A stretch of DNA of 58,372 bases, from IMG/VR virus record IMGVR_UViG_3300032327_000398, positions 1-58,372 of that record; one strand, written 5' to 3'. Source of the stretch: a virus. Taxonomy: Duplodnaviria > Caudoviricetes. A model generated the notes under the pieces. The model was not told the DNA's origin. It saw nothing but the letters and a program-made list of their open reading frames with translations, and ran no database searches. The position numbers and the translations under genes are program-made. Shown one piece after another: positions 26,620 to 55,948 of this stretch (positions are counted from its first letter, which is position 1; every line of letters begins with the position of its first letter).

Positions 26620-27087
26620 ATGGCGTCCGAATCGTACATATACCTAGAGTGCCCGACAGAGTTAATGGAGCAAGCCCTGAGCGTCTTTAGGCTCAACAAC
26701 AAGCACATGATCGCCGACGACCTTCGAAACTATGGGTACACATCAACCGCAACATTCAGAGCAAACCCTGACCAGAGTGAGAACTCAGCTTCACTACAAG
26801 CTGCAGGTATACCCCACGACATATCGGTCGAGCGTGACTACGACGTAGATCCCATGACGTACTACGTTCGGTTCAACCCCGATGGTACGACGGTTCGTAA
26901 AGAGATCATGGACGACGACGTAGTGTTGCCTGTCTACAAACTGCACGACTTACTGGACAAGCCCGATGAACTACGAGCCATGATACAGAAACGCTGGGAG
27001 GATGTCCAAGTCCTGCCATGGGATAACCAACTGGAGTACAGCCTACCTGCAAGGGTAGCCGCAAGACTAATGAGGAGCACGTCATGA
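26620..27087 (+). CDS. Hypothetical protein
   Basis: AAGGAG SD, 155 aa. Confidence 0.7.
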   Translation: MASESYIYLECPTELMEQALSVFRLNNKHMIADDLRNYGYTSTATFRANPDQSENSASLQAAGIPHDISVERDYDVDPMTYYVRFNPDGTTVRKEIMDDDVVLPVYKLHDLLDKPDELRAMIQKRWEDVQVLPWDNQLEYSLPARVAARLMRSTS

Positions 27088-28292
27088 GCATCGTCACCAC
27101 CAACCCACAGCACGCCATCACCAAGGCACGCGTATCCATCCAGATCGACCATGCCTTCTTCGCCTTCATCCTATGCAAGCACACCATACACATCACTGAT
27201 CAAGTAGACACCTTGGCGGTCGACCCACGCAAGAATCTGTATATAAACCCCGAGTTCATTAGCGGCTTAATCTCACAGCAGCTCGTCTGGGCCCTGTGTC
27301 ACGAAGTCATGCACCCTATCCTTGGACACTTCGCTCGTATCGGCACACGTAATGCGTATAAGTGGAACTACGCAGGGGATGCCGTCATCAACGATATGCT
27401 TGCAGACTGCGGAATTGGCGCACCGATCCCAAATACAGTCAACATGCCGGGCTCCAGGCACAAGACTACCGAACAAATCTATAACGAGTTACCAGATAAA
27501 CCTCAACCCAAGCGCGGCCAGCCCGGCCAGCCAAGTAAGCCAAGTAACTCAGGCCAACCCGGACAACCCGGAACTCCCGGACAACCCAGCCCCGACGACC
27601 AGTACGACAACGGGCTAGGCAACGACATCATGCACGGCGCACCGCTCACCCCCGCCGAGATCCAAGAGATCGAGACACAAATCAAGATTGACGTCACCCA
27701 AGCCGCCCTTGCTGCAAAGGTACGTGGTCAGCTGACGGGCAAGTTAGCGCAGTTTGTTGCCGACATGATCGAGGTCAGCACACCGTGGTACGACATCCTT
27801 GAGAGATTCATGCAGGGTCAGATGCGTCACGAGCAGTCATGGATGCGCCCTAACCGTCGCTTTCTGGAATACGGCTATCTGCCAAGTTCTGGCAAGACTC
27901 CCCAGATGGGCGAGGTTGTCATCCAGATCGACGTCTCAGGCTCGATCACACGCAAAGAGATGCAACACTACGCCGGACACATGCAGCGCATCGTGGATCA
28001 GTGCCGCCCCGAGAAAGTCCATGTCCTGTACGTAGACACACAGGTTAAACGCCACGACACCTTCGAGCTTGGCGAGGAGCTTGAGTTCAACTTCTTCTCC
28101 GCCGGTGGCACCGATATGCCCGCAGGTTTTAGGTATTGCGAAGATCATGGCATCGAGCCAGATGTATTGATCTGCTTGACCGATGGCTATACCCCATGGG
28201 GCGAAGACCCCGGATATCCCGTTGTGTGGTGTATCAGTTCGACCAAGACGCCTGACTTCGGTCTGCACGTTCCATTCAAAATCGAGGAGTGA
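27084..28292 (+). CDS. Zinc metallopeptidase plus VWA-domain protein (DUF2201-like)
   Basis: HEVMH zincin motif, WNYAGD..IN, PGQ linker, MIDAS DVSGS...GGTD...TDG. Confidence 0.85.
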   Translation: MSIVTTNPQHAITKARVSIQIDHAFFAFILCKHTIHITDQVDTLAVDPRKNLYINPEFISGLISQQLVWALCHEVMHPILGHFARIGTRNAYKWNYAGDAVINDMLADCGIGAPIPNTVNMPGSRHKTTEQIYNELPDKPQPKRGQPGQPSKPSNSGQPGQPGTPGQPSPDDQYDNGLGNDIMHGAPLTPAEIQEIETQIKIDVTQAALAAKVRGQLTGKLAQFVADMIEVSTPWYDILERFMQGQMRHEQSWMRPNRRFLEYGYLPSSGKTPQMGEVVIQIDVSGSITRKEMQHYAGHMQRIVDQCRPEKVHVLYVDTQVKRHDTFELGEELEFNFFSAGGTDMPAGFRYCEDHGIEPDVLICLTDGYTPWGEDPGYPVVWCISSTKTPDFGLHVPFKIEE

Positions 28293-43203: not shown

Positions 43204-43415
43204 TGGAAAAGGTTAAACAACTACCCGTCGAGGGTATGGTTCGGCTCAGCGACTTGATTGGGGGGCCTACCCGGATCATCCCCTTTTCCCGTGCCACGAT
43301 CTACCGAATGATTGAGCAGGGCACTTTCCCTAGGCCTAAACGATTTGGTAACTGCGTGGCGTGGCCGGTGCAAGCCATCCGTGCATGGATAGATTCCGTG
43401 TCTAACTCTGAATGA
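43203..43415 (+). CDS. alpA: AlpA-family regulator/excisionase
   Basis: SRATIYRMI..GTFPRP...VAW....I.AWI; converges on the integrase. Confidence 0.88.
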   Translation: MEKVKQLPVEGMVRLSDLIGGPTRIIPFSRATIYRMIEQGTFPRPKRFGNCVAWPVQAIRAWIDSVSNSE

Positions 43416-44631
43416 ACCCCTTGGTATCCCTACCCTCGGCTAACGCATCCAGATAATCAGCCCATACCTGCATCATGCTCGTACGCTGCTTGAGGTGCTT
43501 AGTCCGGTTGTAGGCCGTGCCGTGGAGATCCTTCACCATGTGGCCAAGTTGTTGCTCGAGGTAGGTGTCCTTGAAGTTAAGGACTTCCTCCGCAATGGTA
43601 CGAAAGGTCGCACGAAACCCATGCACGGTAGTCTCTGTTCTCTCAAACCCCAGACGCACGAGCGCCGTATTTAACGTGCCGTCACTAATGGGTCTAGACT
43701 TTTGTAATCCGGGAAAAAGATATTCTCCATCGCCCGTTAAAAGTTTTAGTTCCTCAAGCTTTGCCACGACCTGAGTAGCTAGGGGCACAATCAACTGTGT
43801 TCCCAGTTTCTTCTCGGTCTTATTTGGCGTAAAGCTCCAAGACTTGTTCTTGAAATCAATATCCTCCCACTTAGCACGACGAATATCCCCAGGTCTAATC
43901 GCCACACGGGGCACTAACCAGAGCGCACACTTTGTCGAAGGACGTACCTTGGCATGCGGAATTGCTTTAAGTAGCACAGCGAGTTCAGCGGGATCGGTAA
44001 TCGCAGCAAAGTTATTGGTCTTAACCGCTGGCAGCGCACCCACCAAGTCCCGCGCGGGATTATGTTGAACCATCCCACGAATGACAGCAATTGAAAAGAC
44101 CCGCTTAATATCGGATAGCGCTCTATGCGCGATGTCATTGGAGCGTTGCACGATACGCTCGATTACGTGCAGGATCTCAGGGCCTGTAATCTCTTCCAGC
44201 GGTCTGTGCCCAAGGTAGGGTAATACGTCATTCTTTTGGCGGGTCGTGACATGTTCAAAGTGTTCGTCCACCCAACCACTGCGCTCCTTCTCAAGCCACA
44301 GCTTATAAGCAACTTGATACGTATTCTCAGTCTGGATAACGAGGGCTACCTTCTTGGCAACTTTAACCACCATCGGGTCACGCCCCACATCCAAGTCGGC
44401 TTTTGCAGCCTCTGTGGCCTTGCGCGCAGCAGCGAGGGACATCTCAGGGTATCGACCCATCGTTAGGGTTTTATATTTACCCCCGTACTTGTAGTTCATT
44501 CGGAAGGTAATCATGCCGCTTGGGCTTACGTACGCATACATCCCTGTCCCGTCTCCAAGCTTTACGGGCTTCTCCGAGCCTTTTACGCTGCGGAGCTGCA
44601 TGTCTTTTAGTTTCATTTTTACCTTCGGCAA
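43402..44631 (-). CDS. int: P4-type tyrosine integrase
   Basis: Arm domain DGTGM...GRYPEMSL..AR; catalytic R (RPGD), HGFR, LGH, AY; alternative ATG at 44616. Confidence 0.93.
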   Translation of the reverse strand: MPKVKMKLKDMQLRSVKGSEKPVKLGDGTGMYAYVSPSGMITFRMNYKYGGKYKTLTMGRYPEMSLAAARKATEAAKADLDVGRDPMVVKVAKKVALVIQTENTYQVAYKLWLEKERSGWVDEHFEHVTTRQKNDVLPYLGHRPLEEITGPEILHVIERIVQRSNDIAHRALSDIKRVFSIAVIRGMVQHNPARDLVGALPAVKTNNFAAITDPAELAVLLKAIPHAKVRPSTKCALWLVPRVAIRPGDIRRAKWEDIDFKNKSWSFTPNKTEKKLGTQLIVPLATQVVAKLEELKLLTGDGEYLFPGLQKSRPISDGTLNTALVRLGFERTETTVHGFRATFRTIAEEVLNFKDTYLEQQLGHMVKDLHGTAYNRTKHLKQRTSMMQVWADYLDALAEGRDTKGFIQS

Positions 44632-44929: not shown

Positions 44930-47900
44930 TTAGTTGGCATAACCAGCAGCTTTTACCCCACTAGTTTGCAGGTTTTTCGTGGTGCGTTGATCGTACTTAC
45001 GAGCAGCCTGCGGGGCTTTAAAGAGCTGTGACATGGGCTGGGTTTTAAACCCAAGGTCTCTGCGCGATGCATTGATCTCTGTCCATCGCTCCCGTGCGTC
45101 CTGCATGGCAGCGCTATCCCCCTTCTTATACGCTTGAACGTAATCGTGTTCCACCTTCTGCGTTTCTTTTCGGTAGTACGCTTCGTAGGTAGTTTCCACG
45201 CGATTGATGAATTCCTTATCCGCTAACGTATTGGTCTTTAACCCAACAGCGGTCATCATGGAGTCAAACACCCCGACTTCAGCTGGTGACAAAATCGTAG
45301 CTCCGTTGGCACGCGTCAATCCCTTTTCTTGTTGATCGAACGCCTTAACGATATTGGCAATACCTGTGGGCAGTGCTTTTTGCAGACCACCGATAAAGTC
45401 ACCATCAGCCATCTTACCCATACCCTCAAAGGTCTTGGCAGCTAGACCCGCAGTTGGGCCAGCCATACCCAGAAGAATATTCTCCGCAGTGCTTCGGGAC
45501 GCATCCTCAATCTTGGTGTAGGGCAGCAGAGACAGCATCCCACCAAACCCACCAAAGATAGGTTCCATGTCCATGCCAAGTGATTTGGGAACACCTTTGA
45601 GTAGGAAGTTTGCGAGCCCTGTGTCGCCAATGGCACGACGCATGCGGGCTTCTTGTGCTTCTGGATCGTCCGGTTCATCGCCATCGGACATTATCTTTCC
45701 AACCATCCATGCAATGGCTTTGTAGCCGGGCAGCGCCATCAACCCACCGAAGGTAAATGCAGTGCCTAGGGTATACCCTAGTGCGTACTTACCGACCGCG
45801 CGCTCTTCTTTGGATGCACCGGTAAATGCTTGCTGACCGAGTTTAACCATCAGCGACAACTGCACCATCTGGAATTTACGGAACTGAGTCAGTACACGCC
45901 CGGTCTGCGTGCGCATAATGCGCGGTGCGTTAAAGCCTGAGTAATCGCCATGAGTATCGTAAACAGTTTTGCCAGCGTACTTGACCGCAGCATCGTGACC
46001 CATGGTAGGTTTGGCCAGACGGTAAGCCGCGACAGCAGTTGTCACACGGTTAATCCCCTCGACACGTTCTGCCATAGTCTGCAGCTTGGATGTCACACGG
46101 CTAAATGCATCTGTACCTTTCAAACGATCACCCATCTCTTGGTCGAGATCGACGTTAAGCTCACCGCGCTCCATCAGTTCGTGGACAGCCTTCTGCACGT
46201 CCTTGGGCAATTTATCAAGCACGTCACGCGTCAGGTTATTACCCGCCATCACAGCGCCCACATCTTTATAGGCTGTCAGCATCGCACTCACCGCCTGACC
46301 TTGGAAACGACCTGCCAGATAGGGCAAGCTCATCGTCCATGGTTGCATCGCGTTCTGCACGTAGTACAGGGGCTTGGTCAATAACTGCATGACCGAGTTG
46401 GCTTTAAGGATCTTGCCGACTAACTTATTTTCTTTAGACTCAATGCCCATACCATGGCGGGTAAGGATCTCGTTATGCAGGTCTTGGCGCTCCATACGAT
46501 TGTCAGTCGTAATGTCCTCAGCTTCCTTTTTCATGCCGTCGAGCGAGTCTTGGATTTCCTTGGACTTATGAAGCCCTGCCAGAAAGGACGCGTTTGCCAC
46601 GCCGTGCTGGTAGAACGAGCGCATCATGTTGTTCGTCGCACCGGCAATATCATCACGGTGGTGTTCGGAATGACGAGCACTCTGCTCGCTCAGAAGCTGC
46701 AGGTGCAGCTGGGTCAGTAAGTTGTTAATTGCCCGGTGGCTTGCGCTTAAGTCGTCCTCATCTTTCTTATTAGCCAAGCTACGTGTGCGGTACAGCAAGC
46801 CCTGCATCTCTTTGCCACCAAACTTATTGGCTGCATCGTCCTTCATAAAGGATTGGGTTTCGCCATACTTCTTGAGCTGCTCCTCGATCTTGGCAGCTTG
46901 CACACCGTTCTCTGCGAAGTGAACTTGGAAGTGCTTGGGGTCATCACGATTCTTATTAACAAACTTCTGGGCGGCTTTGATCGCAGCTTCGTCGTACTGG
47001 CCTGATTTGCGATTGTTCAGGATGTCCTGATTCATCATCATCTCGGGCGAGCGCATGGTGACAACATGATCGCCAAAACGACCGAGCGGTGCGTAAGGGT
47101 TTTCCCCACGTATATTCATTACGCTATTGAGATGTCCGAGCTCAAAGTCTTTTTCATCTTCGAGTCGCTTGACTTCCTTGACGTCTCCCACAGCGCGTGC
47201 GTTAGCAATACCAATGTCGTAGTTTGCGATCGTGGTGTCTTCGATCTGGTGCTGGATCTGCTTCATGCTTGAGTAGCCATGGGCGAACACGTTACGCACG
47301 ACCTGACGGGCTGCGTCAGTAGTCAAGTTCTTATAGGCAAGTTCCAAGCCCGGGTCAACCTTGGCAGTGTTCTGCCCTGTCGACGCATTAGTAAGCCAGC
47401 TCGGTGTAAATGCCCAGCGTTTGTTACGTGTGGATTCTTTAATGAGTGCGTTGACCGAGCGCTGATCGGCTGCAGACAGTGCCTCAAAGCTCTGACCAAT
47501 CTTTTCAACGGCGCGGCGTTCATCATTACGGATGGCAACCTGCTCACCCATGGCACGCATATACGACACGGCGGACGGCATGTATTTCTCAGCGCGCGCA
47601 ACCAGATCCTTGGTAAAGGAAAGTGCCATCACACCACGCTGGATTTGCTCCGCGAAGGACTTGTAATAGAGCTGTGCGTTTGGGGGGAGCTTGGCTATGT
47701 TCTTGGCAACAACACCCTTGGCAGGTAGAGAGAACTGCATGTCTCCCACATCACCATTACGGGCAGTCGCTACACGTTGGATGTTCTTGTCGTTAAAAAT
47801 AACCGAGTTACGCGTTGCCGTTTTAACTTCTGGATGTTTAGCAACGTAATCTGCTAATCGCTTTTTACGCTCGGCAAGGTATTGCTCAGCGCGAGTAACG

Positions 47901-50900
47901 TCCTCTTGTCTTTTAGGTAGCCACTTATCCTTAGATATGTAAAACCCTGCAAGAGACACGGGGTGTTTTAATTCCCACTCGCTCGGTTTTTCCGCAATGT
48001 ATTTCTCTAACTCATCTTTTGACTCTTGGAGCAAAACCTCTGCAGCTTGGACGTCTCTAGTGTAGCGGGCAGTTCGTTTACGAACAAGATTACCCGAGCG
48101 GCTTGGATCGTCCAAGAACTTGAGACCTTTGACACCATGCTCATCTAAATACATGGACGCTGCGCGGTCGTCCTGACCCTGCTCTTGTGCATCCAGCACG
48201 TCTGGGTTGTTCGATGGGATCGTATCGTCTCTACTTGCTCGCTCAAGTATTTTGTAAAGATCTTTACCCGTCATCTCAGTTGCGTCGATGTTTATCTGAT
48301 CGAGGTAGTCATCAAAGTTTTCTTGCCCAATCTCTGAGCGTATTTTCTCAACGGCTTGTTTGACGTGATCGCTTTGCTCGGACATCGGCGCATCATAATC
48401 TAGCCACTCGTAGTCAGCGATGTTTGAGTCCACACGGTGCAGTGAGCCTTGGTTAGTGTCTGATTGCCGTCCTTTATTTTTAATATCACGCACACGATAG
48501 CCTTGGCCAATACCAAAGCGTTGGGCAGCATAAGTACCCCAACCGAAAGCCTGAGCGCCCTCACCTGAGTTCATGAACGCGTGATTAAATTTTCTGAATG
48601 ATGCTGCGGTGCCGTGCCAGCTTCCAGACATTTCTAACTTGGCTGCACCGTAGGCCATGTCGACCATATCCTGCGCAGTGAGCTTCTCTGGATTGAACCC
48701 AAGTTTACGTATCGCTGCTTTCATGGCAGCGTAAACCGAACGGAACCAACGACCAAGCTCGGACTTGTAGCTCAGCGCCGTAGGATCAACACCCATGTTG
48801 ATCGCTTCTTCAAGGAAGTACGCAACAAGCTCGGTATTACGTTGATTGTCAGATGCGTTAGCAGAAAATACTCGGCCAAGTGCTTTGACAGCAATCTTGG
48901 ACTCGATGGAGTCGTCCTGCTTTCCAGCCCATGCAACAATACTATCTACTAGCTTGTCAAACTGAGCGTCGTTAAGCAGACGTTGAATACCGAGATGGGA
49001 GCCAACTTCATGAAGGAACACAGCCCGTGTCATACCCTTGGGGATATTTCCCGCGATCAGGTAAGCCTTTCCACCCGCAACGACACCCCTTGAGTTAGCG
49101 TCGAACTTCGGGTGGTTACGAATATCAGCAGGTAATTGTTCAACCGATTCAACAACTACCAGACGGCTTTCGTTTAGGGTTCCAACAAATTCTTTAACCG
49201 CAGCATTTGCGGAAGCAACCGTTTCAGTTTCTCCATTGGTACTCGTATTGCTGGTACTGTTCTGGATAGCGTCGTCTTTGGGTACGAGCCCATTCTTCTC
49301 CATGAACTTAACTACGTCCGCTAGCTTTTGGCTCGGCAGGTCAAAGGCTGCAAAGTCTGACTGTTGCTTCTCGGTTAGCTCTGAGAACTTCTTGGCACCG
49401 GGGATTACGGCAACGGCTTTGTCCCATGACCTACTAGCCACGTCCTTGCGTGTCTCTCCTACCGCAGCGGTCTGCGCGGGTGCTGCTTTCTCAGTGGTTT
49501 TCTCGGCAGCGACTTTTCTAGGTGTGGTTACTTTCTTAGGCTTTTCTGTACCCGTTTCTTTCTTGCTTAGATTTTTCTTGGCCGCTTTGATGTTGGCTGT
49601 TGCCTGCTTTGTCTCAAAATCATCAAGCGCTTTCTGAGTGGACTCTACCAAGTCCTGATCGCCAGCTTCGTGCGCGGCATCATTAGCTGCTTGGAGTGCT
49701 TCCCATTTGGCAGCAGCGGCTTCGTTTGTATTACCAAACTCACTTTTGCTCGCGCCGGTGCTACCAGTACGAATATTGACGTTAGACTCGATATTGCCTT
49801 CGCTGTCTATAGACCCATCGCCCAGTACAGATTCTTGCTCGAAGCCACGAACACCTGAGCCATCTTCCAAGAACTGCTGGATTTCGCTTTTCTCGTTCTC
49901 ACGATCCGCAGACTCAATCCATTTCGTAACTTCGCTTGGTGCAATAAGTGCTTGGTAAAGATCAGTCGGGGTCATGCCCTCCGGCAACTGAATCGAAGAT
50001 CCGATAGCGTTGAGTGAGGTGGCGTACTTAGCCAGCCAACGCGATATATCCCCACTATTACGAGGAATATCTGCACTCCATTTCTTAATCTGAGACTCAG
50101 TTACCCCTAGCTCTTTGGCAATTTCTGCCTGCGTGTTATTACGGTCTGCTAGAGCCCGACCCCAGTTTTCTTGGAAAAATTTGGCTTTCGCTTCAAGATC
50201 TTGACCTTGCGGAGTGGCGTGACGAAAAACTCGTAATAAAAAATCACCAATAAATGATCGAGTTTTTTCGGCCTCTATTTCGACGAGGGGTCTTTCGCTT
50301 TCTTGAGTTGACTGCGTTCGAAGGCCGGTAGAATTGCCTTGAATATCTCTATCGAGTTGCGTGTCACCATCTTGTCGTGCGCCAGCGTCCCCCGTTTGGG
50401 AGTCTGATCTGACGACAATGCGGGTTCCACTGGTGTCAATAGAGAGTCCGGTACCTGCAGTTCCTGATCCTGCTGCGGGTCTATCGGTGGTTTGACCATT
50501 TGTGTCATCCTTTCTTGGAGCGCGGCCTTTGGAACCGATGAGTTTACCGGAAGACGTGAGCTTTGGTGCAGGATTTATTTCCTGCGTTTGACTGCCATCA
50601 TTGGAAATATTGGCATCGGGGGTGAGTACGGCTCGTTGTCCATCTCCACCATCTCCGCTGGTGTCATTTTGCTCGCCATTCGATCCAGCAACGATACTTC
50701 CTGCTCCGACGGGTTGAACGCCCGTTGATCGTATAAGCCCAATTTGGTTTCCGCTAGTTTCATTTGTTCCGCTTTGCTCTGGAACTTCTCCCAGCCCGGC
50801 AGTGTTTTGCAATCCTTCATTTGATGCTCCTGTAGTGTTTTGAGTTAAAAGCGTGCGAAGACCATCTGGCGCTGCCGGCGATACCAACCCTGCGCGTTCC

Positions 50901-52879
50901 ATTTGTCCTAGCAAATCTTGTGCGCGTTTATAGTCAACCCGGAAATGTCGTTGGATAAGCGACACCGATGCGCGATTATTTTTTTGTATTAGCTCGACTG
51001 CTGGGGCGTAGAGCGGATCAGTTGCAGCGTTTGCGGCATCCAGACGTGCCTGTGCTTCTTTAACTGCGTCTGATGTAGCCGTTGTAACTGCACTTGGTGC
51101 AGTAGAGTCAACTTTTGTATCGGTAGCAACAGGTGTTGCAGCCGTGGTAGCTACGGCAGTGGATGCAGACTTAGCAGCGGGTTTACCAGTGGGTGTTTTC
51201 TTGGCGTCCTTGGTTGCCTGCTTAGCGGCCTGCTTATCCGCCTCAGCCTTGGCTACCTCAGCTTGATGTGCGTCATTACGCGCCACCGCACGTTCCCTAG
51301 CCGGTGAGTCAGCCCCAGTTAATTCTTTGTGTAGTTTGTTTAGCTCGTTGGCAAACTTAGCACCCTTGCCATCAAGACGTATGTCTTCACTTGCAGGGAT
51401 CGCGTCAATCTGTGCGTCAATCCTGGAGATAACTTCAGCAGGGTTTGCAGCCGTGTCTAACTGGTTCTTCTTTAGGTACGCTGTAACTGCGTTCACTACC
51501 CCTTTAGGGTTTGCGTCAGGCGTGACTTGTACCGCACCCGAATTAATAACCGCACCGATAAGCGTCTTTTGCTCAGGTGACATATTGGAGGACGCTTTTT
51601 CGAGTCCGACGATAAATGCCTTAGCGTCATTCTGGGTAAAAATTGGTTTACTACCGATTGAGAATTGTCCCGTTGGATTACCATCTGCGCCCATGGTTGG
51701 ACGAACACCAAACGTCCCTGCGACAGTAGCAAAGCCTGCATCATGTGATGCCTGTGTCTGCTGCGCTGCAGCGGCAGCATCAGCTTGTTGTTTCTGGATA
51801 TTAGCGGCAGCAACAGCTGCGGAGTCAGCCTCGTTCTGTTTAATCTGTTCAGGAGTCAGCAATTGCGGGCCGATACTTGCCACGGCTTTAGCTTGGGAGT
51901 TGGCAGCGATTTGCTCAGGCGTAAGCGAAGAGGTGTTCGTGAAATCGTTTTCATTAATGGCAGCACCAATTGCACCACCCGCGCTTGGCCTACGGCCTCT
52001 AAAGCCAGCGGGCAAACCCATCACACCTTCAACTACACCGCCAATCACACCGGCATTTAAACGCTGGCTGAACTTCTCGTCATCAGTAAGTGGCTTGCCA
52101 ACTGCCATCTCAAGCTCACCTTGCGTAAGCTCACTTGTCGCACCCGATGCGCCCTGCACGGCAAAGTTCTTGCCCATACGTGTCAGCAGATTACCCGAGG
52201 CACCACTGCCATTGGCGAGCTTTCCAAACAACATAGCTTGGGGAATAGTCTCGGCCAGAGCATGCGGAACCGCACCAAGGAAGGCAGTAGCACCGGGGCT
52301 TTTATCTTCTGGGTTCTCGCTCGCAGAGTCATACATCGAGCCCACGCCCGTGCCGTAATTAAACGCAGCACCGCCCGTAATAGCACGGGCTAAGTCTTTG
52401 CCGCCTTCAAGAGCTGCACGTCTGGCTGCAAACGACGACCCAGCCTCAAGCGCTGCAGCCCCACCACCACCAAGTATTCTTGGAACGAACGCCGCACCTC
52501 GTGCGAGCGCAGCGGGTATAGCCACTTCGGGGAGTGCGATAGCGGTAGCTACTGATCCAGCTAGGTTAGGGAGTTGCTTACCAATCTGATACGCCAACAT
52601 CGGGGCAGCGTTGCCCCAGCTAATGTCTTCAATCTTCTCTAGGTCTGGGCGACCGTTTAACCTTGACTCTATGCTGTTTCGATCAGCGCCCTCCTCACCC
52701 CAGTTTTTTATCTTGTTAGAGCCAACTAGATCACCGATAGCTGCGATACCAGAGTATCCAAGGCCCTGCAGATCGTCGATACCTGATGATACGCCTGATA
52801 CTAAAGCGTTACGGTCTTGCCGTCTAATATCCTGAACAGGGTCATTGTCTAGTGGTTCAAAATCGTTAAGCAACGCCAT
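44930..52879 (-). CDS. Giant polyvalent internal virion/ejection protein (2649 aa)
   Basis: Gly/Ala hydrophobic N-terminus, FtsK-gamma-like domain, HTH, HEVGSH zincin-like, WHGT...FGWGTY ART-like and PLGRFG motifs. Confidence 0.8.
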   Translation of the reverse strand: MALLNDFEPLDNDPVQDIRRQDRNALVSGVSSGIDDLQGLGYSGIAAIGDLVGSNKIKNWGEEGADRNSIESRLNGRPDLEKIEDISWGNAAPMLAYQIGKQLPNLAGSVATAIALPEVAIPAALARGAAFVPRILGGGGAAALEAGSSFAARRAALEGGKDLARAITGGAAFNYGTGVGSMYDSASENPEDKSPGATAFLGAVPHALAETIPQAMLFGKLANGSGASGNLLTRMGKNFAVQGASGATSELTQGELEMAVGKPLTDDEKFSQRLNAGVIGGVVEGVMGLPAGFRGRRPSAGGAIGAAINENDFTNTSSLTPEQIAANSQAKAVASIGPQLLTPEQIKQNEADSAAVAAANIQKQQADAAAAAQQTQASHDAGFATVAGTFGVRPTMGADGNPTGQFSIGSKPIFTQNDAKAFIVGLEKASSNMSPEQKTLIGAVINSGAVQVTPDANPKGVVNAVTAYLKKNQLDTAANPAEVISRIDAQIDAIPASEDIRLDGKGAKFANELNKLHKELTGADSPARERAVARNDAHQAEVAKAEADKQAAKQATKDAKKTPTGKPAAKSASTAVATTAATPVATDTKVDSTAPSAVTTATSDAVKEAQARLDAANAATDPLYAPAVELIQKNNRASVSLIQRHFRVDYKRAQDLLGQMERAGLVSPAAPDGLRTLLTQNTTGASNEGLQNTAGLGEVPEQSGTNETSGNQIGLIRSTGVQPVGAGSIVAGSNGEQNDTSGDGGDGQRAVLTPDANISNDGSQTQEINPAPKLTSSGKLIGSKGRAPRKDDTNGQTTDRPAAGSGTAGTGLSIDTSGTRIVVRSDSQTGDAGARQDGDTQLDRDIQGNSTGLRTQSTQESERPLVEIEAEKTRSFIGDFLLRVFRHATPQGQDLEAKAKFFQENWGRALADRNNTQAEIAKELGVTESQIKKWSADIPRNSGDISRWLAKYATSLNAIGSSIQLPEGMTPTDLYQALIAPSEVTKWIESADRENEKSEIQQFLEDGSGVRGFEQESVLGDGSIDSEGNIESNVNIRTGSTGASKSEFGNTNEAAAAKWEALQAANDAAHEAGDQDLVESTQKALDDFETKQATANIKAAKKNLSKKETGTEKPKKVTTPRKVAAEKTTEKAAPAQTAAVGETRKDVASRSWDKAVAVIPGAKKFSELTEKQQSDFAAFDLPSQKLADVVKFMEKNGLVPKDDAIQNSTSNTSTNGETETVASANAAVKEFVGTLNESRLVVVESVEQLPADIRNHPKFDANSRGVVAGGKAYLIAGNIPKGMTRAVFLHEVGSHLGIQRLLNDAQFDKLVDSIVAWAGKQDDSIESKIAVKALGRVFSANASDNQRNTELVAYFLEEAINMGVDPTALSYKSELGRWFRSVYAAMKAAIRKLGFNPEKLTAQDMVDMAYGAAKLEMSGSWHGTAASFRKFNHAFMNSGEGAQAFGWGTYAAQRFGIGQGYRVRDIKNKGRQSDTNQGSLHRVDSNIADYEWLDYDAPMSEQSDHVKQAVEKIRSEIGQENFDDYLDQINIDATEMTGKDLYKILERASRDDTIPSNNPDVLDAQEQGQDDRAASMYLDEHGVKGLKFLDDPSRSGNLVRKRTARYTRDVQAAEVLLQESKDELEKYIAEKPSEWELKHPVSLAGFYISKDKWLPKRQEDVTRAEQYLAERKKRLADYVAKHPEVKTATRNSVIFNDKNIQRVATARNGDVGDMQFSLPAKGVVAKNIAKLPPNAQLYYKSFAEQIQRGVMALSFTKDLVARAEKYMPSAVSYMRAMGEQVAIRNDERRAVEKIGQSFEALSAADQRSVNALIKESTRNKRWAFTPSWLTNASTGQNTAKVDPGLELAYKNLTTDAARQVVRNVFAHGYSSMKQIQHQIEDTTIANYDIGIANARAVGDVKEVKRLEDEKDFELGHLNSVMNIRGENPYAPLGRFGDHVVTMRSPEMMMNQDILNNRKSGQYDEAAIKAAQKFVNKNRDDPKHFQVHFAENGVQAAKIEEQLKKYGETQSFMKDDAANKFGGKEMQGLLYRTRSLANKKDEDDLSASHRAINNLLTQLHLQLLSEQSARHSEHHRDDIAGATNNMMRSFYQHGVANASFLAGLHKSKEIQDSLDGMKKEAEDITTDNRMERQDLHNEILTRHGMGIESKENKLVGKILKANSVMQLLTKPLYYVQNAMQPWTMSLPYLAGRFQGQAVSAMLTAYKDVGAVMAGNNLTRDVLDKLPKDVQKAVHELMERGELNVDLDQEMGDRLKGTDAFSRVTSKLQTMAERVEGINRVTTAVAAYRLAKPTMGHDAAVKYAGKTVYDTHGDYSGFNAPRIMRTQTGRVLTQFRKFQMVQLSLMVKLGQQAFTGASKEERAVGKYALGYTLGTAFTFGGLMALPGYKAIAWMVGKIMSDGDEPDDPEAQEARMRRAIGDTGLANFLLKGVPKSLGMDMEPIFGGFGGMLSLLPYTKIEDASRSTAENILLGMAGPTAGLAAKTFEGMGKMADGDFIGGLQKALPTGIANIVKAFDQQEKGLTRANGATILSPAEVGVFDSMMTAVGLKTNTLADKEFINRVETTYEAYYRKETQKVEHDYVQAYKKGDSAAMQDARERWTEINASRRDLGFKTQPMSQLFKAPQAARKYDQRTTKNLQTSGVKAAGYAN
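50275..50499 (-). CDS. Putative nested +1-frame ORF B inside the giant gene
   Basis: AAAGGA-8 nt-ATG; 74 aa MVKPPIDPQQDQ...KKAKDPSSK. Confidence 0.45.
   Translation of the reverse strand: MVKPPIDPQQDQELQVPDSLLTPVEPALSSDQTPKRGTLAHDKMVTRNSIEIFKAILPAFERSQLKKAKDPSSK
50575..50820 (-). CDS. Putative nested +1-frame ORF A inside the giant gene
   Basis: ACAGGAG-6 nt-ATG; 81 aa MKDCKTLPGWEKF...MMAVKRRK with protein-like composition. Confidence 0.55.
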   Translation of the reverse strand: MKDCKTLPGWEKFQSKAEQMKLAETKLGLYDQRAFNPSEQEVSLLDRMASKMTPAEMVEMDNEPYSPPMPIFPMMAVKRRK

Positions 52880-52899: not shown

Positions 52900-54561
52900 T
52901 TATTTTGTTTGATTTGCCGTACGACGTTCACCAGTTTTCTTATTTTCAAAAACCAACGTACCACCGCCTAGGGCACTATTCTTTTGACGCCCGATCGGCT
53001 CAAACCCCTGCTTGTACATTGAGGCAATTGTGAATCGTTCATTAGCGTTGGATGGAGCCAGAACACCTCGAGCACTTGGAGGTAGTGGGACTTCTCCGGT
53101 TGGGTCTTCCAACGCTACGCTTTGCTTCATAGCTGCGCTAGTCTTTGCGGCTTTATCAATACTTACGAAAGCGTCTTTCTCGTTGTCGTACCACTTGTTA
53201 TCAGCACCCTTAAACCCTGCACGACCTTTTGCGTCTACGGCACCTATAACTCCAGCACTCGCAGCAGACTCTGATACTTTAGGAGTTCCTTTATCGACCC
53301 ATCCTGCACCATCACGGAATTCCTGTACCCGATCTCCATTTGGGGTTGTACGCATCGTGCCGTCGGTACTGACCTTCCAATCGACCGTGGGCTTTTGATT
53401 GCCCTTCCCCTTATAGATTTTCCAAGCAGCAGCGTCTGCCTCTTCTACCGTATAAGGTTTTTTAGTAGCCGGATTTATTTCCTGACCTTTAACTAAGTCT
53501 TGAGCTATGTACCCAACTTCCTCGGCAGCAACCTCAGCTTTGGATGGTTTTGCGCTAGGGTCTCTAGTAAGTACTTGGAGTGCATATGCCCGAGCTTCTT
53601 TAGTATCTTTAAACGGTTCACCTGTTTTTGGATTATTCGTTCCACCACCCATGAACCCAGTCGCCATGGCGTCAGCTTTTTCATTAAGGACGTCCGTAGC
53701 CGTTTGCTTTTTCCCCATGGCTGCACCAGCCGCACCGTAATAGCCAGCTTTAGCTTTTGCCTCAAGTTCTTTAGCGCCGACTTCACGACCTTTAAGGTTA
53801 AGCTCTTCACCCTCTTTAAACTTACCGGGGAGTGATTGATACTTTGCAAATGCTATGTCTTTAAACGCAGCCATGGCAGTCTGCGAATTGATGGGTGTAC
53901 TCGACACAACCTTACCCTTGGTATCTTTCTGCACAAGTGAGGAGCTTCCGTCAGCACCCTGTACAACCTCAGCAGTCATACCGTCATCAAGGTGTCCACC
54001 TTTAGGGGGCTTGTTGTAATCCTTTAGGTTGTCTTGTGCCCACTTAACAGGATCTTTTTGGATCTGGGCAAGTGAGTTCTGGCTCCATGCGCTGAAATCA
54101 TCTTCAGCTTTACCGCGCGAATCGACTCGACGGGCATTGCTAATATCCAAGCCTTCGCGCTCGGCCTTGCGCCCCATGTCGAAGTTAATACCATAGGCGC
54201 GTTTGGTGAAGTCTGCATCAGCCATCTCGCGTGTGTACGCGGTAGTACCCTCTTGCGGTTGGGTCGGGATCGCTTGGACAGGTACTGGTTTTCCATCAGC
54301 ACCGACTTGACCTTGACCGTCACCTGCGAAGACCTGAGCTTCCTCTTTCGGGGCAAGTAGGGCTTCGACGTTATCGTATTTATTCTGGCCGACCTGACCG
54401 TACGTATCACTAGAAGCTTGGGTCAACGCCTCTTTCTGGTCTTGTTCTTTTTGCCATGCGTCAAACATCTTCTGGTCACGAGCTTCTTTATTTAGCCGCT
54501 CGAATGTGCTCACACTGGATTGGGCACCAGCACCAAGCGCTACACCTAAGTTGAATCCCAT
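52900..54561 (-). CDS. Internal virion (ejection) protein
   Basis: MGFNLGVALGAG N-terminus; NP.T..P repeats; lies between the other ejection genes. Confidence 0.6.
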   Translation of the reverse strand: MGFNLGVALGAGAQSSVSTFERLNKEARDQKMFDAWQKEQDQKEALTQASSDTYGQVGQNKYDNVEALLAPKEEAQVFAGDGQGQVGADGKPVPVQAIPTQPQEGTTAYTREMADADFTKRAYGINFDMGRKAEREGLDISNARRVDSRGKAEDDFSAWSQNSLAQIQKDPVKWAQDNLKDYNKPPKGGHLDDGMTAEVVQGADGSSSLVQKDTKGKVVSSTPINSQTAMAAFKDIAFAKYQSLPGKFKEGEELNLKGREVGAKELEAKAKAGYYGAAGAAMGKKQTATDVLNEKADAMATGFMGGGTNNPKTGEPFKDTKEARAYALQVLTRDPSAKPSKAEVAAEEVGYIAQDLVKGQEINPATKKPYTVEEADAAAWKIYKGKGNQKPTVDWKVSTDGTMRTTPNGDRVQEFRDGAGWVDKGTPKVSESAASAGVIGAVDAKGRAGFKGADNKWYDNEKDAFVSIDKAAKTSAAMKQSVALEDPTGEVPLPPSARGVLAPSNANERFTIASMYKQGFEPIGRQKNSALGGGTLVFENKKTGERRTANQTK

Positions 54562-55522: not shown

Positions 55523-55948
55523 TTAGTTTCTACCTAACCTCAAAAATCTGCACTCACTGGCTAACATGCCATAGAGAATCATATCGGTACCATCTGCACA
55601 CGCCGAGCGGATTAATCCCTCGCGTACAAAGCCCAGATGCTCGTCAAATTTTTGCGCTGGTAGGTTATCAACACGTACTAACCCCGTTACACGCCTACAG
55701 TGTAACTGCAAAAAGGGATATGCGAACACCCTAAATAAAAAATCACGGTTCATCCAGCGTTTTCCGGGCTCAGCCGCTACGTGAATATTGATACTTGTGC
55801 CAGAATATTCATTAAAAACAACACCAGCAACTAACTCACCATCTTTTTCTAGCCCGAGACCAACTGCGTCATCGAACTTACCCTCGTTAATACGCTCCCC
55901 CACCCATGCACAAACTCGGGCATCCTGTCCGTAAATAACCGTTTTCAT
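55523..55948 (-). CDS. GNAT-fold acetyltransferase-like virion-module protein
   Basis: F.YPF.QL...RVTGLV..DN....KF.E.LGFVREG.IR. Confidence 0.8.
   Translation of the reverse strand: MKTVIYGQDARVCAWVGERINEGKFDDAVGLGLEKDGELVAGVVFNEYSGTSINIHVAAEPGKRWMNRDFLFRVFAYPFLQLHCRRVTGLVRVDNLPAQKFDEHLGFVREGLIRSACADGTDMILYGMLASECRFLRLGRN

Follow-up and report, generated by a model that had tools for sequence, protein, structure and literature searches.

The complete viral genome IMGVR_UViG_3300032327_000398 (Duplodnaviria; Caudoviricetes), whose 58,372 nucleotides were analysed at full length (hereafter the window), encodes on its minus strand a giant protein of 2649 amino acids (aa) belonging to the PLxRFG family of polyvalent virion proteins. 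Residues 621-678 of this protein are a genuine winged helix of the FtsK gamma type. This domain is a discrete optional cassette within the disordered, variable N-terminal half of the giant protein, and it is missing from all other homologues that were examined. The coordinates of the cassette and of the other features discussed below are collected in Table 1.

A gamma-type winged helix inside a giant phage protein

The domain had been proposed in a sequence-only reading of the window, which located it at 50845-51019 between low-complexity linkers. Translation of this interval on the reverse strand is identical letter by letter to the 58-aa gamma peptide (DPLYAP...RTLL), which belongs to the minus strand, and the reading frame of the plus strand is interrupted by a stop; the range given in that reading thus holds, the exact codons being 50846-51019. 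The identity of the domain is likewise upheld by the profile search that the same reading had suggested as a check, with a score well above the cut-off. The Pfam model FtsK_gamma (PF09397, curated gathering cut-off 30.6 bits) matches the whole 2649-aa protein at residues 620-678 with 57.8 bits (E 8.8e-16), covering positions 3-61 of the 63 in the profile, and no other domain of the giant protein passes a Pfam cut-off. The 58 aa alone score 63.0 bits. In a six-frame search of the whole record with the same model the gamma segment reached 64.3 bits, and no second gamma copy was found. When the sequences of the Protein Data Bank (PDB) were searched with phmmer, the matches were FtsK gamma chains only (2j5o, 2ve8, 2j5p, 5dcf, 2iut and 2ius, E 2e-9 to 6e-8).

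Structure prediction, another of the checks suggested, leads to the same assignment, and the winged-helix fold on which the reading depended is present. An AlphaFold2 model of a 95-residue piece (residues 606-700), built from an alignment of 38 rows, consists of a helix, a short strand, two further helices and a wing. The block means of the predicted local distance difference test (pLDDT) are 90-93 over model residues 21-60, 83 over 61-70 and 72 over 11-20. All the top 12 Foldseek matches of this model in the PDB are FtsK gamma structures, with a root-mean-square deviation of 0.9-1.5 A over 57-59 columns and a target TM-score of 0.71-0.88, which places the model within the winged-helix fold. 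They are followed by generic winged-helix regulators (MarR, IclR) at E >= 0.02. The phage domain thus shares with FtsK/SpoIIIE gamma (PF09397; 2j5p, 2j5o, 2ve8, 2ve9, 5dcf) both the fold and 40-41% identity over 57-59 columns. Unlike in FtsK/SpoIIIE, however, it does not stand at the C-terminus of a motor, but lies internally in a 2649-aa virion protein without ATPase.

The domain is an optional cassette of the giant protein

Homologues of the giant protein were searched in a collection of 5.8 billion proteins, which returned 136 at E<=1e-3; 120 of them, the query included, were listed. According to precomputed annotation, PF09397 occurs only in the query among these 120 listed of 136. The 119 other homologues yielded no gamma domain either when they were searched with the 58 residues by phmmer, the best E being 0.22. 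The part of the protein where the cassette lies is its least conserved, residues 601-650 being covered by one of the 119 homologues in BLASTP alignments. P0003 and P0004, the nearest homologues, have about 59% identity with the giant protein in its C-terminal body. Both can be aligned through the upstream linker as far as '...AVKEAQARLDA'; short low-complexity sequence and gaps then take up the place of the domain, and beyond it the alignment continues in the common Gly/Ser/Asn-rich linker. Ten related loci, taken from contigs of viruses and bacteria and several of them incomplete, do not contain the gamma domain either.

The flanking linkers, also noted in the sequence-only reading, are evident both from their composition and from the low pLDDT outside the domain: small and polar residues make up 92% of residues 551-600 and 78-82% across residues 701-850. 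Within them the cassette resembles the rest of the gene in composition, with a G+C content of 0.517 against 0.511 and a G+C content at third codon positions at the 28th percentile of 58-codon windows. An insertion so similar to its gene in composition is not recent, and its frame has been maintained. A recent capture from the host was considered and rejected on account of this gene-like composition, of the best identity found anywhere (about 60%) and of the 29-30 identities in 58 positions with FtsK of the candidate host clade.

The scaffold is kept and the recognition helix has diverged

Residues 1288-1320 of the gamma domain are numbered here as in Escherichia coli FtsK. In that protein the triple substitution R1300A, E1303A, E1306A is reported to abolish the recognition of FtsK orienting polar sequences (KOPS) and to leave Xer activation intact (PMC2680272). 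The interface with XerD has been described as formed by Q1288, R1289, R1292, I1293, G1294 and N1296, with R1289 as the most important residue and Q1288, R1289, R1292 and N1296 providing the polar contacts; the 9-mer RQFRIGYNR (1289-1297) alone was enough for some XerCD activation (PMC5052618). The surface of FtsK gamma that contacts XerD has also been published to contact DNA.

The phage copy reads Q-RHFRVDYKR-AQD-LLG-QME over this region. The change of the GYNRAAR segment to DYKRAQD, which had been pointed out from the sequence, is borne out by the PDB alignments and when the phage copy is set beside 206 related gamma domains. In the PDB alignments Q1288, R1289, R1292, Y1295, R1297 and E1306 are kept; I1293V, G1294D, N1296K, R1300D and E1303G are the changes. 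The KOPS-reading residues R1300/E1303/E1306 therefore appear as D/G/E, and with one of three retained the phage copy departs from the KOPS-reading type. Taking the E. coli residues as the yardstick, the XerD-contact set retains Q1288, R1289 and R1292 and has I1293V, G1294D and N1296K changed, and the 9-mer is identical at six of its nine positions.

Among the 206 relatives, 17 columns are conserved at 80% or more, and the phage copy keeps 13 of them, including Q1288, R1289, Y1295, R1297, E1306 and the arginine of the wing (Arg1320). The only radical departure in these columns is G1294D, and aspartate is found at this position in 10 of the 206. Position 1300 is R or K in 150 of the relatives and position 1303 is E or D in 187, and in the nearest 10-tip subclade R1300 is kept in one of the nine other domains. 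Compared with FtsK/SpoIIIE gamma, it is the turn and the recognition helix that are altered, by G1294D, N1296K, R1300D and E1303G. Judged from these columns, the scaffold is under constraint, and the turn and the recognition helix have a make-up that is not that of FtsK. Canonical KOPS reading by the phage copy is unlikely on the same grounds. Binding of double-stranded DNA (dsDNA) by the cassette is plausible given the modelled fold and the retained basic residues, among them the wing arginine, the net charge of the domain being +2.

Relatives of the cassette among mobile elements

When 1.84 billion representative proteins were searched exhaustively with the gamma domain by HMMER, 2188 matched at E <= 1e-3, and the highest identity over a single domain was about 60%. 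Word-index searches with the domain region, among shorter proteins and among proteins of similar length, returned the query only, which reflects a limit of the index and not an absence, as the exhaustive search makes clear. Among the best 150 of the 2188, 10 carry an FtsK motor, 4 are RdgC fusions, 1 is a giant protein (P0219) and the remainder are small proteins in which gamma occurs one to three times. P0219 (4198 aa) combines an SLT lysozyme domain, FtsK_gamma at residues 721-780, a Strawberry-notch-type helicase and LPD38. Its gamma domain is 52% identical to that of the phage protein, and because the two giants have nothing else in common, its presence there means that a second polyvalent protein has recruited gamma independently.

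In P0219 the gamma domain lies upstream of the Strawberry-notch-type ATPase, which belongs to superfamily 2; it could load this motor on DNA, a role nearer to that of gamma in FtsK. Many of the small proteins (about 150-470 aa; P0122, P0124, P0135 and others) have two or three gamma domains in tandem, three of them in the 216 aa of P0122. By analogy, such proteins look like natural counterparts of the covalent gamma trimers that have been engineered to bind KOPS, with higher affinity as the intention (PMC3384302).

A FastTree phylogeny of 207 gamma domains over 58 columns, which carries local supports only and is indicative rather than firm, places the window's copy in a 28-tip clade (local support 0.93) together with P0219, one RdgC fusion and small proteins. 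An FtsK motor was matched in none of the 25 other proteins of this clade. On this indicative tree the cassette seems to group with the gamma domains of phages and mobile elements and not with FtsK proper. It shares with these domains, namely the RdgC-gamma fusions of Vibrio and Pseudomonas phages, the small proteins of 1-3 copies and P0219, the wing signature SP.(x)DG.RT.L, and differs from them in its host protein. Five betaproteobacterial genomes contain the closest named prophage-like relatives of the giant protein; their own FtsK gamma domains are all canonical (QRHLRIGYNR[AS]AR...E.ME), with 29-30 of 58 positions identical to the phage copy. In reference phages the gamma domain was matched in 174 records; of the 40 records listed, those with an annotation mainly represent RdgC-like recombination proteins or FtsK-like translocases, and none of these 40 matches falls in a PLxRFG giant gene. 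In a plasmid collection 355 records matched, and among the 40 listed the annotated ones are FtsK paralogues, with no polyvalent protein seen.

The giant protein and its probable association with the virion

Polyvalent virion proteins of giant size are believed to enter the host together with the phage DNA. The protein that carries the cassette had been called a giant ejection protein, and of this description the part that stands is that it is a giant member of a virion-associated family; ejection itself would follow from that family. Its membership is clear from the NCBIfam model NF032893 ('PLxRFG domain-containing protein'), which matches residues 1995-2630 with 255.7 bits against a cut-off of 100. 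The PLGRFG motif occupies residues 1931-1936, and P1928, Y1929, L1932, R1934 and G1936 are invariant in 15 relatives. The protein also matches PHROG 10089 ('DarB-like antirestriction') with E 5e-39. Since no methylase or helicase Pfam match was obtained at E <= 0.1, in contrast to what defines P1 DarB, the 'DarB-like' label is limited to the shared C-terminal body.

This body is the conserved part of the family, residues 1751-2600 being covered in 110-116 of the 119 homologues by BLASTP, and the N-terminal half is variable. The other listed homologues carry ART-PolyVal, LPD23, LPD38, LPD39, LPD1, LPD5, PBECR and other domains in varying sets, so that the family consists of polyvalent proteins, that is, giants joining unrelated domains whose complement varies among homologues. 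The C-terminal body was detected with tblastn in giant genes of PBC5, Skulduggery, POI1126, SopranoGao, PEp14, Atu_ph08 and others (87 records, 22-28% identity), and a search of the giant gene against reference phages at the level of near-identical DNA gave no match. The protein resembles the giants of Bcep22-like podoviruses (Bcep22 gp75, JC1 gp69), PBC5, Skulduggery, PEp14 and SopranoGao in its PLxRFG body and in the place of its gene at the end of the virion module, and differs from them in an unrelated N-terminal half. In JC1, a Bcep22-like phage, gp69 has been detected in CsCl-purified virions with 51 unique peptides (PMC9144972). The giant gene of the window sits in the structural arm, beyond the tail-fibre and virion-protein genes. 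By analogy with JC1 gp69, and in view of this gene position, the giant protein is probably packaged in the virion; its ejection into the host, a further step beyond packaging, would be expected by analogy with P1 DarB.

No motor was found that could be coupled to the cassette: searches for FtsK_SpoIIIE, FtsK_alpha, HerA or any other ATPase gave no Pfam match at E <= 0.1 in the 2649 aa, and the motor domains of a true FtsK used for comparison (P0199) were clearly detected by the same kind of search. The single Walker-A-like string of the giant protein lies inside the PLxRFG domain, and its GK is not part of the consensus of 15 family sequences. Several Pfam helix-turn-helix (HTH) models fall on the same 24 residues (911-934), all below their cut-offs, the best being HTH_28 with 22.4 bits (E 1.3e-4, cut-off 25). 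The motif TxxEIAxExGV of this segment is present in the consensus of 15 family members, and P0003 and P0004 show similarly weak matches. The segment is a probable helix-turn-helix and would be a second, ancestral DNA-binding element within the variable half.

Between this element and the PLxRFG body lies a conserved middle module, with residues 1201-1450 covered by 59-83 of the 119 homologues. It contains an HExxxH motif at residues 1290-1295 (48995-49012, minus strand), of which H1290, E1291 and H1295 are conserved at 90% or more in 15 relatives. Pfam and PDB searches with residues 1225-1480 gave no significant match. A lead from the ESM Atlas pointed to ART-PolyVal/LPD23 clusters (score 0.94); this assignment was not confirmed, as P0003 reaches 26.2 bits with the ART-PolyVal model, whose cut-off is 31.2. 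The module could be an enzyme that depends on a metal, or a peptidase involved in processing.

Strand-skewed motifs in the phage genome

The sequence-only reading had also suggested scanning the genome for strand-skewed octamers that the domain might recognize, and the outcome gives such recognition no footing. GGGNAGGG is present in no copy on the plus strand and in six on the minus strand, against first-order Markov expectations of 1.3 and 2.9, a split that is not significant (one-sided p about 0.10). Among octamers, AGCAGTCA shows the strongest skew: it occurs 13 times on the plus strand and never on the minus strand; about 2.9 copies are expected on both strands, and none of 100 shuffles reaches 13. 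Eleven of the 13 copies lie in the plus-strand early and replication arm, in genic as well as intergenic positions, and the next base is usually T or C. AGCAGTCA could be a regulatory, Chi-like or packaging-related motif. Nothing notable was obtained for SpoIIIE recognition sequences (SRS), Lactococcus KOPS or Chi motifs. A search for a dif-like site gave one match with 3 mismatches, which is chance level, since 28 of 100 shuffles do as well.

Possible roles of the cassette

The role that we tentatively prefer, at slightly less than an even chance, is that of an accessory dsDNA tether for an ejected giant protein. The gamma cassette would have been acquired as a discrete module in the disordered N-terminal half of a PLxRFG polyvalent virion protein, where it would behave as an accessory dsDNA-binding bead on a long flexible tether, beside the helix-turn-helix that is common to the family. 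Such a bead would hold all or part of the giant protein to DNA inside the capsid, shortly after ejection or at both stages, with the genome of the phage itself as the most plausible partner. Its specificity would be other than KOPS, or slight, and no orienting role would be expected of it. Several points weigh against this proposal. The 119 homologues examined all do without the gamma domain, which makes it dispensable for the core function of the family. The acidic changes G1294D, in the turn between helices 2 and 3, and R1300D, in the recognition helix, could each weaken the contact with DNA, and a single gamma domain is described as binding DNA weakly, three of them binding one KOPS in the co-crystal (PMC3384302). 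Moreover, no motif of the phage genome is tied to the gamma domain, nothing linking AGCAGTCA to it, and ejection would rest on the family, the virion evidence coming from the distant member JC1 gp69.

The same absence from 119 of 119 homologues and from 10 of 10 related loci would also be expected if the cassette were a mere passenger, a mobile winged helix-turn-helix module that landed in a tolerant disordered linker and is now simply tolerated or being lost. The location in the least conserved part of the giant protein and the four turn and recognition-helix positions that are off the family norm fit such a history. However, the core of the fold is intact, both in the strongly conserved columns (13 of 17 kept) and in the model (core pLDDT about 90 or more), the gene-like composition indicates an insertion that is not recent and whose frame has been kept, and at least one independent recruitment into a giant protein, P0219, argues for usefulness. 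A passenger is therefore unlikely, if still worth bearing in mind. Even less expected is that the delivered cassette engages the XerD of the host, or another tyrosine recombinase, through the FtsK-gamma surface and acts independently of FtsK as an activator or a decoy. The RHFRVDYKR segment retains Q1288, R1289 and R1292 of the XerD patch. The KOPS-blind substitutions spare Xer activation, and of those three positions the phage copy is altered at just R1300 and E1303; R1300 is kept by only one of the nine other domains in the nearest subclade. Phage-encoded Xer activators are also known to exist, such as XafT of TLC-phi (PMC6744903, PMC9226527). This Vibrio satellite phage factor, which replaces FtsK gamma in XerD activation, is a precedent for recombinase modulation only; it is expressed from the element and not carried within a virion protein, and the integration site of TLC-phi is dif, a kind of site that the phage described here lacks, having an integrase of its own. 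The retained residues are, however, near-invariant in the 206 relatives and are DNA contacts too, so that they do not discriminate between the two uses; G1294D, I1293V and N1296K all fall within the 9-mer; and the contact residues compared are those of the E. coli protein. Gene adjacency is all that connects the domain with the integrase of the phage. An interference with host FtsK/Xer, as put forward in the sequence-only reading, is conceivable with Q1288, R1289 and R1292 retained, but is not supported by these results.

The other function put forward there was the binding of oriented motifs, with the domain reading skewed KOPS-like octamers to guide genome entry or competing with host FtsK for KOPS. 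It could appeal to the gamma family of FtsK itself, which does read KOPS, to the occurrence of all six copies of GGGNAGGG on one strand and to the 13:0 distribution of AGCAGTCA in favour of the plus strand. Oriented reading is meaningful only when coupled to a translocase, though, and is thus meaningless in a giant protein without one. Two of the three KOPS-blind positions are changed (R1300D and E1303G), the split of GGGNAGGG loses significance after composition is taken into account, and AGCAGTCA is concentrated in the arm of plus-strand genes. Competition would hardly be feasible either, with few injected copies facing the many KOPS of a host chromosome. KOPS reading in either form is consequently very improbable. 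A further proposal, which we regard as speculative and improbable, is that of a mobile-element gamma subfamily that has lost the KOPS arginine R1300 and kept the R1289/R1292 XerD patch, its members, set as beads in the flexible tether of injected giant virion proteins, serving as FtsK-independent regulators of host tyrosine recombination or as handles that load a protein on incoming DNA.

Genomic context

The record, of metagenomic origin, is a complete genome with a 123-bp terminal repeat and 49.9% G+C, and the phage is a podovirus-like one and temperate, with a tyrosine integrase. The minus strand encodes the large terminase, portal, tail proteins, an internal virion protein, the tail fibre, an acyltransferase and a virion structural protein, followed by a 553-aa open reading frame (ORF), the giant gene and the integrase. 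The plus-strand arm holds replication genes (family A DNA polymerase, SNF2 helicase and primase-helicase). The 553-aa ORF gave no PHROG, Pfam or NCBIfam match. In JC1 the gene order gp68-gp69 is that of a 510-aa virion-associated protein followed by the giant gene (PMC9144972), and by position the 553-aa ORF would be the counterpart of the former.

Table 1. Position of the gamma cassette, of the other parts of the giant protein and of neighbouring features in the window
Feature	Position	Strand	Basis
FtsK_gamma winged-helix cassette, residues 621-678	codons 50846..51019	-	Pfam, PDB sequence matches, AlphaFold2, Foldseek
Giant ORF P0001, 2649 aa, PLxRFG / 'DarB-like' polyvalent virion protein	44930..52879	-	ORF list, PHROG 10089, NF032893
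N-side low-complexity linker, residues 551-620, Ala/Thr/Lys-rich	51020..51229	-	composition; pLDDT <50 where modelled
C-side low-complexity linker, residues 679-860, Gly/Ser/Thr/Asn/Gln-rich, net charge -8	50300..50845	-	composition, charge; pLDDT 57-65 where modelled
Probable helix-turn-helix, family-conserved, residues 911-934	50078..50149	-	sub-cut-off Pfam HTH matches and consensus motif
Conserved middle module, about residues 1230-1460	48500..49192	-	coverage by homologues, HExxxH
Conserved C-terminal PLxRFG body, residues about 1724-2649	44930..47710	-	homologue coverage, motif, NF032893
Tyrosine integrase, directly downstream of the giant gene	43402..44631	-	Pfam Arm-DNA-bind_3, Phage_int_M, Phage_integrase; PHROG 1
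553-aa ORF, directly upstream of the giant gene	52900..54561	-	position
AGCAGTCA	1593, 22137, 22789, 23867, 24753, 25736, 26477, 27832, 29722, 32597, 35464, 41382, 53971	+	octamer count

The closest named relatives of the giant protein come from contigs of betaproteobacterial metagenome-assembled genomes (Alcaligenaceae, Oxalobacteraceae, Dechloromonas, Zoogloeaceae, Accumulibacter). They hint at a betaproteobacterial host, a hint only, as phage contigs can be mis-binned. The acyltransferase, an acyl-CoA N-acyltransferase (PHROG 4470), is encoded at 55523-55948 on the minus strand, between the tail-fibre and virion-protein genes, and may be a moron or a virion-associated modifier. A protein with a DUF2201_N putative metallopeptidase domain and a VWA-like domain is encoded in the early arm (27084-28292, plus strand). 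ARAGORN found no tRNA gene in the whole window; the Bcep22-like phages compared in the JC1 paper are described as having a serine tRNA each (PMC9144972).

Novelty and implications

The theme of an FtsK winged helix in polyvalent proteins is already known, as are the gamma domain family and the family of the giant protein. Iyer et al. 2017 (PMC5512222) describe, in a single mention, an 'FtsK wHTH domain' as a rare domain of polyvalent proteins and a predicted dsDNA binder, a Cupriavidus protein being their example. The protein reported here resembles the polyvalent proteins of that study: it is giant and composed of several domains, its phage is of the terminase-portal type, the set of domains varies among homologues, and gamma is a rare accessory module. 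In what was consulted of the literature on polyvalent proteins, PLxRFG and Bcep22/BcepIL02 virions, no function was found assigned to a gamma domain in such a protein, and the supplementary tables of Iyer et al. may list more cases. The novelty lies in the individual case: among the PLxRFG-family proteins examined, this one alone (1 of 120) has a gamma domain, which falls in a mobile-element clade and has a diverged recognition helix. Overall, the result is a well-supported annotation rather than a discovery, and the functional ideas of the sequence-only reading are left without support.

The interest of such an instance is that the cargo domains of giant polyvalent virion proteins reveal the needs of a phage at the very start of infection, and the present one is a 58-residue domain that folds independently. 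If the delivered cassette did contact a Xer recombinase, it would represent a new kind of injected regulator. If a mobile-element gamma subfamily of the kind outlined above does exist, a pre-made regulator would be at work in the first seconds of infection, ahead of phage gene expression. And if the cassette is instead the accessory DNA tether that we prefer, it would explain how giant polyvalent proteins act in cis on the incoming genome.

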